Part shown: piece by piece, positions 2,856-48,119 of the stretch
How the letters are laid out: every line of letters starts with the position of its first letter
Position numbering within the stretch: the stretch's first letter is position 1
Assembly (NCBI GenBank): GCA_951406725.2
Contig: OX597817.1
Span: 163,246,001 to 163,310,000 of the forward strand
Origin: Octopus vulgaris
Lineage: Eukaryota
Reading direction: 5' to 3'
DNA length: 64,000 bases
The notes under the pieces: model-generated
The model's input: the letters and a program-made list of their open reading frames with translations, nothing else
Database searches by the model: none
What the model was told of the DNA's origin: nothing
Position numbers and translations under genes: made by a program

Positions 2856-3458
2856 CCTACCAACCTACCTATCTATCTATCTATCTATTATATATCTCTG
2901 TCTGACTGAGGGATTGTCTATATAGTCATAAGAGATGACATGGGAATAAATATTTCATTAGCTTCATTTTAAAATATAAATTAATTTCAATGAAAGGAAT
3001 TGCATTATATATATAATGATTCCAAGCATGAATATCAGATGGGCACAAATGCTAACATCAACAATGTTTCCATAAATGTAAGCATAAATGCGAACATAAA
3101 CGGTGTTAACATATACGATGACAGACTAAACCGAGAATCCAACTTCCATTATAGTATAGAACTGACATTATTTGTTAAATTTACAAAAATATAAATTCTA
3201 CTCTAAGAACTTTACACTTGATTTCTAATAAAATATCACTTAACATTTATGAGGAAATTAATGTTTCTTGTACAAAAATTGGACAGAAAATTTTAGTTGC
3301 ATTCTAAAAATATAAAATGTTTCGTAATTTAACACGCCAAGGCTTATGTATTGGATCTAGTATTAATAAGAGAAAGCGTTTGGGTGCCAATAATTTTCGC
3401 ATCCACACACACACAAACACACTCATACATATTCATATATACACATTATACAAACATA

Positions 3459-32090: not shown

Positions 32091-32695
32091 AGGCAGCGAG
32101 CTGGCAGAAACGTTAGCATGCCAGACGAAATGCTTAGCGGTATTTCGTCTGCCGCTACGTTCTGAGTTCAAATTCCGCCGAGCTCGACTTAGCCTTTCAT
32201 CCTTTCGGGGTCGATAAATTAAGTTGCCAGTTACGCACTGGGGTCGATGTAATCGACTTAATATCTTTGTTTGTCCTTGTTTGTCCCCTCTGTGTTTAGC
32301 CCCTTGTGGGTAGTAAAGAAATAGGTATTCCATCTGCCGTTACGTTCTGAGTTCAAATTCTGCCGAGGTCGACTTAGCCTTTCATCCTTTCGAGGTCGAT
32401 AAATTAAGTTGCCAGTTACGCACTGGGGTCGATGTAATCGACTTTATCCTTTTGTCTGTCCTTGTTTGTCCCCTCTGTGTTTAGCCCCTTGTGGGTAGTA
32501 AAGAAATAGGTATTCCATCTGCCGTTACGTTCTGAGTTCAAATTCTGCCGAGGTCGACTTAGCCTTTCATCCTTTCGAGGTCGATAAATTAAGTTGCCAG
32601 TTACGCACTGGGGTCGATGTAATCGACTTAATATCTTTGTTTGTCCTTGTTTGTCCCCTCTGTGTTTAGCCCCTTGTGGGTAGTAAACAAATAAG
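32091..32695 (+). mobile_element. SINE family A with three tandem bodies
   Basis: One head then 185-bp units at 32140, 32325 and 32510; flanked by AAGA(G/A)ACATTGGGATGAC (probable TSD). Confidence 0.9.
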
Positions 32696-42900: not shown

Positions 42901-44476
42901 AGATATATATGATGGCAATTTCTCCATGTCCAAAGATCATGAGGAAGAAAGACACGCCTTCGAGTCATTATGAAAACTGATCCTTGACACTGCTGAGTGT
43001 TTTTTCCTGCCTGCGCTTAACAGTTTAGTGTGAGCCAGTCCGTACAATCCGGTGACACTCTCTATAACTGGAGATTTAATCTCAATGGGTTAGTGGGCTA
43101 AGACGGCTGCAGTGGGCAGCAATATATAGGTGTTACACTGGGGCTAGGGTAACCTTCTTCTAGATGAATTACATTACAGGGCTGGAGAGCTCCTTCATTC
43201 TCTACAATACTCTTCCATCTATCTGGAAGACTTGATTGGTGTATGTGAACAGTTCTGTCTGTTTTTGATGGGGAGGGAGAATAGGCGATGGAAAAAGAGA
43301 AAGGAATGGTATAATAAAAGAGAGAGAGAAACGAATGTATGGTAACGTCGGATTGTTTTGATATTTGAGTATGCAGATGTCGGGATGGGTAGTATAGTTC
43401 ATTAGTTTGACCTTAGTCACAGCGGGCACCTCCACAATGAATTCAGACGCAGTAGGAGCAGGAAGTAAGGCTATTCTGTCGTTGAAGTTCACACAAATTA
43501 AATAACATAGAACTCAATAGGATAAAACCAGAGGGGGCTTACGGAAAAAAGACTGCAGATCAAAACAAAATAAACAATGATGGAATGGTTGAAAATAGGA
43601 ATGATAAAAGTTCCCCTATAGAAAAAAAACGGGTCCGAACAACTCCATACAATTGGCAGTGCAATCAATATCTAAGGAAGATGCAAACACTGTCACAGGA
43701 GGGAAAACAAATGTGAGCAGCAACATGAACTCCGCTTATAGGACCGGAAAAGATAATATCACATGTAAGTTCAGACGGAGAAATGAGTGCAATTTTAACA
43801 ACAACTGTATGGTAATGACTGTGGTTAACAAATGTGAGGTGAAGACGGGTACACAAGAAAACATGTAGATGGGTGGTACCAGAGACACTCTGAAAAATCG
43901 TCTGCGCAACCATTTTATGTCATTTTCCAGTGTACACAAAAAGCACGGCACATCATTATCTAACCTCATCTGGAAGCTCAAACAGAATTGAGTTGAGCGT
44001 AAAGCCAACTGGTCTATAATGAAAAAAAAAAAAACGCTAGCCATACAATAAAACATTGCATGTGTGCAACTTATACCCAGAGAAAACTCTGGAGATCATT
44101 GCATCCAGAGAAAACATAATAGACATTCCAAAGTAATTATATCATGTAAGCATAAAAGCAAGGCATCATTCCTAGAATTCAAAAAGAACATTTTGAAACA
44201 GAAAAAACTCTAACTGTCACTAGCATCTAATGGAACAAGAGAAGAACATATAGACGAACTAAACGAAAAAACAAACAAACAAAATCCCATTATTTTCCTA
44301 TGCTATCTGCTATGTAATTGTACCACCAGAGGTAATTAAATGGACCATTTAAGAGAACATCATTTGTCAACTCAGACAGTGAATTCCAACAACAAAATAG
44401 CTATACTTCTTGACCCTATATTTACATACATATATAAATACATAAACACACACACACACATTATATGTGTGTATAC

Positions 44477-47221: not shown

Positions 47222-47400
47222 TAAGCTGAAGTGAAGGCAGCATATTCTTTGTCTATCTCCTTACCTTCTTGGAGATTTTAATGCAGCTGAGGTTTGCTCT
47301 GCATTTAAATTGATGTAATGGTTGCATTGTTCAATTAAATGGAGTTGCTTGAAACGATCGTACTGCATTACCTCTGGATATCCTTATATATATATATACT

Positions 47401-48097
47401 CAACTGATAAGGGTGAGAAAATTGGATACTAATTTAATAGTACATCCATTTAACACCAAGTGGCCCAGTGCACAAAAAAAAACCTGGATTATGACAAAAT
47501 TTTTATACATAAATATAAGAGAGTGGTCACTATGTGGCTCACTCTGACACTAGAAATAGATCCGATAGGTTTCAGCCACAAAATAAATGTTTCCAATGAA
47601 AGTCAGCACGACTGTTAGCTCAAACGAACAGGGCAAATAAAAATAACAAAAATACAGATTATTTTGGGACAATTGATTCGCTATTAATGAATTAAATGAA
47701 AGTCAGCACGACTTTCATTGTATCTGTTTCCGTGAATTTTGGCGGGCTGTGGTTAAGGGCATTTGAATTATAACAGCGAATGCAATCGACTGAACCACAC
47801 GTGTACTTATCGTTATGGTAAAATCTGGCGTGAGATTGAGTAAATTGTATTTTAGATGGTTTTGGCTGATGAGCTACAAGTGAATTACTGTGAGTAAAAT
47901 TACATTTAATTCATTAATAGCGAAACAATTGTCCCAAAATAATCTGTATTTTTGTTATTTTTATTTGCCCTGTTCGTTTGAGCTAACAGTCGTGCTGACT
48001 TTCATTGGAAACATTTATTTTGTGGCTGAAACCTATCGGATCTATTTCTAGTGCCAGAGTGAGCCACATAGTGACCACTCTCTTATATTTATGTATA
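47401..48097. mobile_element. Fold-back, hammerhead-bearing PLE-like non-autonomous element in (TA)n
   Basis: Near-perfect 195-bp inverted arms 47504-47698 / 47903-48097; tail with terminal hairpin 47412-47457 on the minus copy only; (TA)n on both sides. Confidence 0.75.
47859..47940 (+). ncRNA. Type I hammerhead ribozyme, canonical core, predicted cleavage after GUC (C47933)
   Basis: Stem I TTTTGG(47860-65)/CCAAAA(47934-39); CTGATGA 47866-72; stem II GCTA/TAGC extended by TGAATTA/TAATTCA; GAAA 47922-25; palindromic stem III ACAATTGT; C17 at 47933. Confidence 0.85.
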
Positions 48098-48119
48098 TAT
48101 ATATATATATATATATATA

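Follow-up and report, generated by a model that had tools for sequence, protein, structure and literature searches.

In a 64,000-nucleotide stretch of the Octopus vulgaris genome (contig OX597817.1, positions 163,246,001 to 163,310,000; this whole stretch is hereafter the window), a complete hammerhead ribozyme motif lies in one arm of an inversion that is bordered by (TA)n. Which kind of element leaves such a structure behind, and which enzyme has copied it? An initial interpretation made from the letters of the window, here called the sequence-only reading, had proposed a young, non-autonomous retroelement of fold-back form. We followed the element through the genome (2.8 Gb, 227 contigs) and consider the locus to be an insertion of a non-LTR retrozyme that was copied from RNA into (TA)n by the protein of a Penelope-like element (PLE), most likely one of the Hydra clade; we put the probability of this reading at about 0.75. 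That the retrozyme is mobilised by a PLE is in our opinion very probable. The interest lies in the evidence on mechanism from the family as a whole, not in the window locus.

Judged by its sequence, the locus is one PLE-type insertion composed of two opposed, truncated copies of one unit (Table 1). Complementarity of the arms (47499-47701 and 47900-48102) amounts to 98%, with 3 differences in 198 nt, one being the change of GAAA to GAAT in the left arm. The near-perfect inversion, the (TA)n on both sides and a left arm with only the 3' half of the ribozyme had all been recognised by the sequence-only reading. Its picture of a fold-back element has to be modified: the inverted arms are present, but the mobile unit is a tandem retrozyme unit and not a 700-bp fold-back, and the outer segment at 47400-47503, for which no explanation had been given, represents the 3' tail of the element itself and belongs to a left copy of ~300 bp. 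At the joint, the left copy stops at AATG, followed by a back-jump of 100 nt, a 6-base fold-back on an internal hairpin and the right copy; the junction hairpin that re-uses arm-internal sequence had been described before and is confirmed here. Comparable re-copies or snap-backs are present at the joints of L194, L142 and the Hydra insertion L262, and such a joint is presumably the trace expected from template switching and from microhomology-mediated end joining alike. A template switch at the inversion junction had been assumed; the hairpin does mark the joint, but the inversion most likely represents two cDNAs that were primed on opposite target strands. The window copy is probably an ordinary, dead-end copy of the repeat, since it has only one complete ribozyme and since read-through transcription is predicted to yield a long hairpin in which the ribozyme is destroyed. 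Folding gave a predicted probability of stems I and II of 0.83-1.0 for the right copy alone and of 0 when the whole insertion is transcribed; the window copy is therefore probably silent as a ribozyme unless it is transcribed from within.

Table 1 Features of the window locus, with positions in the window, strand and basis of the assignment
Feature	Position	Strand	Basis
Left (TA)n target remnant	47385..47398	.	Sequence
5'-truncated unit copy, unit ~221-534, long 3' end	47400..47701	-	BLAST against natural unit of array L031
Tail between short and long 3' ends, ~100 nt in the subfamily of the window copy	47400..47503	-	Tail follows the short end in full copies, e.g. L002
Ribozyme 3' half of left copy, GAAA changed to GAAT, 5' core absent	47661..47701	-	Sequence
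Joint of the two copies: back-jump at 4-nt microhomology AATG re-copying 47595-47613, then fold-back giving a 10-bp hairpin	47695..47719	.	
5'-truncated unit copy, unit ~38-413, short 3' end	47720..48093	+	BLAST against L031 unit
Type I hammerhead motif with stem I of 7 bp, extended stem II of 49 nt and stem III of 2 bp inside the 8-nt palindrome ACAATTGT	47859..47940	+	
Right (TA)n target remnant	48094..48119	.	Sequence

The hammerhead motif of the right copy is complete. Stem I (47859-47865 paired with 47934-47940) is followed by CTGATGA from 47866, stem II (47873-47921), GAAA from 47922, the palindrome (47925-47932) and GTC ending at 47933, so that the core elements CUGANGA, GAAA and UH stand in type I order together with stems I and II. 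All core and stem features named by the sequence-only reading were thus recovered, with a stem I of 7 bp. The cleavage site is predicted between 47933 and 47934. The 91-nt ribozyme region folds with a z-score of -4.2, and none of 200 shuffled sequences was as stable. For the palindrome of stem III a self-duplex of 8 bp (-6.4 kcal/mol) and no hairpin of its own is predicted, as would be expected for dimer-dependent cleavage; pairing of a palindromic stem III between two copies is the arrangement described for this type of cleavage (PMC4209133).

Conservation was determined for those 61 of 92 loci (see below) that have both anchors outside the motif, with the first copy of each locus. At the 12 core positions only 6 of 732 cells (0.82%) departed from the commonest letter, compared to 641 of 5,917 cells (10.8%) at the 97 other positions of the same loci. 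The free core position N7 varied (G29/A21/C9/T2), and the core was intact at 56 of the 61 loci. These sequence comparisons show that the ribozyme is under selection. RNAalifold applied to 16 full or near-full units yielded a structure for the whole unit in which 98.2% of cells are paired; 13 pairs showed two-sided changes (7.0 in shuffles), among them 4 of the 10 pairs of stem I, a count that leans towards itself because it was made on the same alignment that yielded the structure. When 18 families and subfamilies chosen by hand were compared, pairing at the first five positions of stem I was kept in 75 of 90 cells, against 28-42 when the strands were slid, and the first pair was found as GC, AT, TA and CG. 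Conservation and co-variation of core and stems among genomic copies, on which the sequence-only reading had staked its ribozyme, are thus present.

A pattern for long-stem hammerheads gave 6,456 matches in the genome and none with the reversed control. The hammerhead scan proposed earlier was therefore successful with this pattern but not with Rfam, which listed no hammerhead model among the best 150 of 217 matches for the whole window nor among the 4 matches obtained for 47400-48090 with E up to 10. This failure is probably due to the 49-nt stem II, and a hammerhead pattern with a spacer of 10-40 nt also missed the window motif because its stem II is longer. The long-stem ribozymes suggest that hammerheads are undercounted by standard searches. 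Five further long-stem hammerhead families were noticed, whose carriers may be Hydra ends or retrozymes (L107; L108/L113; L109/L114/L117/L118; L112; L116).

The mobile unit is, according to its sequence, an ORF-less repeat of 505-535 bp that is found as monomers, in tandem arrays of up to 12 full units and as inversions in (TA)n. Arrays have a spacing of 532-535 bp and carry a hammerhead in consecutive units. A natural 534-bp unit cut from array L031 served as reference; three subfamilies are ~75-100% identical to it, and stem II has 46-50 nt across the family. A search with the right arm of the insertion yielded 1,911 candidates at first look, 40 of them scored, and exact genome matches numbered 2,079 for a 29-mer of the unit and 2,906 for an 18-mer of the tail (controls 0). 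The repeat thus occurs thousands of times in the genome, with a minimum of 2,079 exact-match sites. Neither an ORF of 200 aa or more nor similarity to a reverse transcriptase (RT) was detected inside the unit, which is in agreement with the absence of an ORF noted before and does not fit an autonomous PLE. At the 92 loci no RT/GIY-YIG ORF was found in a pseudo-LTR arrangement, and of the two things expected from a BLAST search, a high copy number and a linked RT/GIY-YIG ORF, only the former was found. As judged by the ORF and RT searches, the unit conforms to the definition of non-LTR retrozymes, which are without ORF, LTR, PBS and PPT. Copy number, the conserved and co-varying ribozyme and the lack of an ORF of its own together bear out the proposal of a young, non-autonomous, hammerhead-bearing retroelement. 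The monomer is highly self-paired (67% paired), with circular-fold z-scores of -4.9 and -5.0 (30 shuffles).

How the unit is inserted was analysed at 92 loci, which correspond to 100 fetched loci minus 8 same-place or segmental duplicates; they were taken from the best BLAST hits and pattern lists, not at random, and represent ~100 of more than 2,000 sites. One locus ran past its locus edge, leaving 91 for scoring. The same insertion with shared flanks was seen at two or more places for L011/L012, L148/L149 and L194/L229, which are segmental or assembly duplicates. The 3' ends fall at two fixed places ~100-120 nt apart, a short end at unit position ~413 and a long end at ~534 (ends at 393-448 were scored as short, the short ends of two subfamilies being labelled 439 by a mapping artefact). 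One 3' end was present at 39 of the 91 loci and two at 52. Of the two-ended insertions, 49 combined one long with one short end, none had two long or two short ends, and the remaining three (L006, L142, L162) had an odd end. This pairing holds even in insertions of tens of bases (L196, L201, L203). In all three subfamilies, a long end that runs on continues with unit position 1. Within a distance of 40 nt, TA repeats were found at 138 of 143 3' ends and at 25 of 39 outer 5' ends, and nesting in the (TA)n of a neighbour is common (L005, L208, L225). The 5' break points, 144 in number including internal and outer ones, show an even distribution; the pile-up that was sought at the cut site (unit position 254) is absent, with no break at 250-264, and the template was thus not a cut linear monomer. 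Taken together, 5' truncation, partial tandems, an inverted 5'-truncated copy, a one-sided tail and (TA)n are all present, i.e. the signature of Penelope-like insertions as defined in PMC8557442. The Penelope-like insertion structure suspected earlier is thereby substantiated among the loci examined.

Each insertion appears to be the product of a single template. At 20 of 21 two-arm loci the arms differ from each other by 0-7 per ~150 nt, whereas the median difference from other loci is 7-28; only L156, which consists of two separate insertions, deviates. Within arrays the divergence is 0-0.4%, with 22 private substitutions versus 1 shared (ten samples with at least 3 units, two of which overlap one array; gapped columns ignored), and the 11 units of L032, distributed over both strands, show zero substitutions. 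Between arrays the divergence is 0.2-8.1%, the lowest value being that of L032 versus L033. Near-identical units on both strands point to one template per insertion, as far as can be read from the sequences. The uniformity of arrays would fit repeated copying of one circular monomer; it could also be the product of a uniform source array or of assembly polishing.

We propose the following course of events. Tandem arrays would be transcribed, and two ribozymes, paired via their palindromic stems III, would release a monomer that would be ligated to a circle; excision and circularisation are assumed by analogy with the retrozymes of coral, mussel and axolotl. The GIY-YIG nuclease of a helper element would nick both strands of (TA)n, and from each 3'-OH reverse transcription would start at an internal site of the RNA, the long site being used by one and the short site by the other. 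By circling the template many times the enzyme would generate arrays of identical units, and the cDNA ends would finally be joined via microhomology jumps and snap-backs, resulting in the inversion and the small hairpin. For another PLE, internal initiation at two tail-bounding sites and nicking of both strands have been described in vitro (PMC11167929). In the same system ribozyme cleavage was dispensable for insertion (PMC11167929), and only 1 of 9 Xenopus retrozyme dimers was cleaved in vitro (bioRxiv 10.64898/2026.07.22.740005). A circular RNA template is the alternative we somewhat prefer. The complete picture, in which a Hydra-clade dimer nicks both (TA)n strands, the two non-equivalent start sites of one and the same retrozyme circle give rise to one cDNA each and rolling yields identical tandems, so that the insertions record PLE copying of circular RNA, and in which thousands of hammerheads with stems II of 45-85 nt, undetected by Rfam here, are common to retrozymes and Hydra elements, is put forward as a tentative proposal.

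Concerning the helper, tracing of other long-stem ribozymes led to a group of Hydra-clade elements (18,299 candidates) with intact ORFs of ~955 aa after the first Met. Hydra family A (ORF of L124) shows RWK, DKT, a CxCX5C linker, CxxC, CxH, a C-terminal nuclease and a (TA)n target; the label Hydra is based on the motifs that define the clade in PMC8557442, and the CxCX5C linker is not visible in family F. A Pfam search with a 641-aa Hydra piece gave no useful match. Families A-G were found, and each one examined carries a ribozyme of its own, with a stem II of 51-85 nt and a 6-nt stem III insert like that of the unit. All 19 classifiable two-ended Hydra insertions (47 loci) combine a long with a short end, and the tail has ~115-155 nt in families A and F. 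PLE sequence occurs within 150 bp of 4 of the 92 retrozyme loci, in all four cases Hydra and in two separated by (TA)n. Direct joins of unit and PLE were found twice for Hydra (L194, L142). At L194 a 1.1-kb coding piece of Hydra F is joined to the unit at the ribozyme via microhomology and an 18-nt re-copy, both parts being ~98% identical to their nearest relatives; at L142 a snap-back hairpin links the unit to the 3' end of Hydra G. Both joins may represent a template switch or a nested insertion followed by deletion. From these comparisons of sequences we consider a Hydra-clade element the likely helper. Note that at least seven Hydra families are present (L121-L140, L171-L190, L211-L230, L261-L290), several of them with intact frames of 840-1,090 aa and asparagine-rich insertions. 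Those examined all have long-stem hammerheads; the published set includes one octopus Hydra family and reports short stems II for Hydra ribozymes (PMC8557442 File S2).

A parent element of the unit was sought in addition. Outside the ribozyme, no terminal repeat of Hydra or Neptune-like families matched the unit significantly (best 2 of 200 shuffles among 24 pairings, and 6 of 300 among 27), and a later alignment round found no Hydra match for the unit family; when the number of pairings tried is allowed for, no terminal-repeat homology indicates derivation from a specific Hydra family. Families A, B, C, D, E, F and G were each rejected as parent, none aligning with the unit outside the ribozyme. 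The terminal repeats of families A, B and C fail to align with each other, too. A comparison of a second retrozyme family (546-bp unit, see below) with one Hydra F copy gave a z-score of 4.1 that was not repeated with another copy. Fourteen tail-only sites were inspected for an autonomous carrier and were all short retrozyme insertions, one being the join at L194.

An alternative source of the helper would be a Neptune-like family, to which a search for GIY-YIG families led. These families received this presumptive label because their sequence has a nuclease at the C-terminus together with a cysteine linker. One young family of this kind, with RT and GIY-YIG nuclease, has many intact ORFs of 781 aa (565 relatives in a protein search) and ends in (TA)n, and a second Neptune-like family shows long and short ends as well (L090), so that the end rule is not specific to Hydra; moreover, no sequence link from the unit to any Hydra terminal repeat was found. 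Against this, the Neptune-like families examined have minimal ribozymes (stem II of 17-20 nt, stem III insert of 4 nt), the one readable tail has ~35 nt compared to 100-120 nt in the unit, direct joins among the 92 loci number 0 versus 2 for Hydra, and similarity of these families to the unit does not exceed AT-rich noise. We therefore regard a Neptune-like helper as unlikely. If element and helper are as we assume, the template could still have been different, namely a linear, uncut multimer transcribed from a uniform source array, without a circle and with a ribozyme that acts later or only with assistance by protein. The main substrate of the anole PLE is indeed unprocessed RNA, and ribozyme mutants of it inserted normally (PMC11167929); the passage of cDNA across the cut site without a pile-up and the near-identity of some arrays (L032/L033, 0.2%) agree with this as well. 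On the other hand, an insert of 11-13 units would require a transcript that stayed uncut at every intact ribozyme, the ribozyme core is under strong selection, variants within arrays are nearly all private, and the unit folds well as a circle. This renders a linear template the less favoured, rather unlikely possibility.

More distant from our reading is the assumption that the copies are solo pseudo-LTRs, i.e. truncated ends of an autonomous element that escaped detection. Many other long-stem ribozyme matches are in fact 3' ends of Hydra elements, and the loci inspected are a small part of all sites (~100 of more than 2,000). Long ends that continue, however, always enter unit position 1, and this in three subfamilies; full units without an ORF stand in arrays of up to 12; at none of the loci does an ORF follow the tail or a 3' UTR precede the unit; and the homologous 546-bp-unit family behaves alike. 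We consider this explanation highly improbable. The 200-bp inverted arms also resemble the terminal inverted repeats of a fold-back DNA transposon or the product of a local repair inversion, with an incidental ribozyme motif that Rfam did not see; but the inversion point is a different one at each locus, the outer ends differ from one another in sequence, inversion is lacking in 39 of 91 insertions and the ribozyme core is selectively conserved. The end structure of the 91 insertions and the conservation of the core refute this idea, to which we attach a negligible probability. A retrozyme copied from RNA by a PLE protein thus remains our preferred reading.

The octopus unit has much in common with the non-LTR retrozymes of animals (PMC7229834; bioRxiv 10.64898/2026.07.22.740005): a tandem repeat that lacks an ORF and carries a single type I hammerhead in each unit, a short palindromic stem III, low GC content, monomers to multimers, a strongly self-paired predicted circle and the presence of PLEs in the same genome, of which retrozymes have been proposed to be non-autonomous derivatives. 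Its unit length compares to 170-400 nt (PMC7229834) and 51-972 bp (bioRxiv 10.64898/2026.07.22.740005). Differences are the stem II of 46-50 nt instead of a short hairpin and the PLE tail, inversions and (TA)n targets in place of recognisable target-site duplications. A parent terminal repeat that can be aligned is lacking, whereas 21 of 57 Xenopus families matched PLEs (bioRxiv 10.64898/2026.07.22.740005). Circles of the octopus retrozyme are a prediction from its sequence.

Hydra-clade PLEs, which include the octopus element Hydra-1_Obim, share with the unit (TA)n targets, a type I hammerhead near the 3' end, tandem or inverted insertions and a one-sided tail (PMC8557442, where the PLE tail is described as usually one-sided), and those of the same genome also its long stem II and the long/short rule. 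Contrary to these elements the unit has no ORF; its short end lies ~160 nt after the cut site, compared to 35-60 nt in Hydra A, D and F, and its tail of 100-120 nt exceeds the 30-40 bp given in PMC8557442. The Poseidon PLE of the green anole resembles the unit in two internal RT start sites that bound the tail, in nicking and extension of both strands and in AT-rich targets, and its protein is predicted to be a dimer (PMC11167929). In Poseidon no difference in start site was found between the strands (PMC11167929), whereas 49 of 52 two-ended octopus insertions use each site once; the Poseidon start sites lie inside an ORF (PMC11167929), unlike those of the ORF-less unit.

The class of non-LTR retrozymes is known, and the octopus variant appears to be new. 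A literature search, to the scope of which subscription journals, Repbase and Dfam did not belong, found no cephalopod retrozyme, no mobilisation by Hydra-clade elements and no long-plus-short rule; the 2026 retrozyme survey sampled no mollusc, and its supplements may contain further retrozyme families (bioRxiv 10.64898/2026.07.22.740005). The family may already be present in Repbase or Dfam as an unclassified consensus. So far, arguments on the enzyme and the template of animal retrozymes have drawn on co-occurrence and, in frogs, on the similarity of terminal repeats (PMC7229834; bioRxiv 10.64898/2026.07.22.740005). In the octopus family the individual insertions provide such evidence: they have the PLE tail, pair long and short ends strictly, carry a single haplotype each and in two cases are joined directly to Hydra. 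Complex PLE insertions with tandem and inverted copies, which PMC8557442 lists as unexplained, can also be accounted for in a simple manner by the long/short rule. The genome itself provides the reagents for a test, namely Hydra ORFs that are both intact and young, retrozyme units of recent origin and start sites that have been mapped.

Several minor observations were made in the course of the analysis. The second retrozyme family, with a unit of 546 bp, is homologous to the first on the 3' side of the cut site (z 17.8); with best copies 97-100% identical it is very young (1,125 candidates; L225:6650-7901, L231-L260, G000). In its ribozyme the first pair of stem II is an A-C mismatch, and stem III would give tandem G-A pairs in a dimer; an automatic count of its ends was too incomplete to be used. 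In alignment A1 of the first family, columns 381-387, just before the short end, pair with columns 484-490 in the tail, with one two-sided change, and this predicted pairing may hold the two start sites together in one RNA structure. The young Neptune-like element (L084:1268-4968, L081-L089) has an upstream frame of up to 479 aa that overlaps the 781-aa RT-nuclease frame, and a hammerhead variant in which U3-A8 replaces C3-G8.

Words of the unit occur in sequencing runs under three organism labels; judging from these sequences the family is probably common to related species, or else to the labels. Among the runs listed as containing the unit, none is on record as RNA. Contigs of three runs guessed to be RNA and of one unclassified run map onto the unit, contain no joints or ends and have no bearing on expression. 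At L032:2634-2652 and 3290-3305, clusters of five T-to-C and five A-to-G changes, each in a single contig of run X1 (a run only guessed to be RNA), resemble the pattern of A-to-I editing and may possibly have arisen by it. In the window itself, 43803-44021 holds a fragment of a Hydra-type nuclease domain with 34% identity to Hydra family F, and a repeat of 184-185 bp, presumably a SINE-like sequence, stands in tandem at 1369-1808 and 32139-32693 and is present in the flanks of other loci, too.
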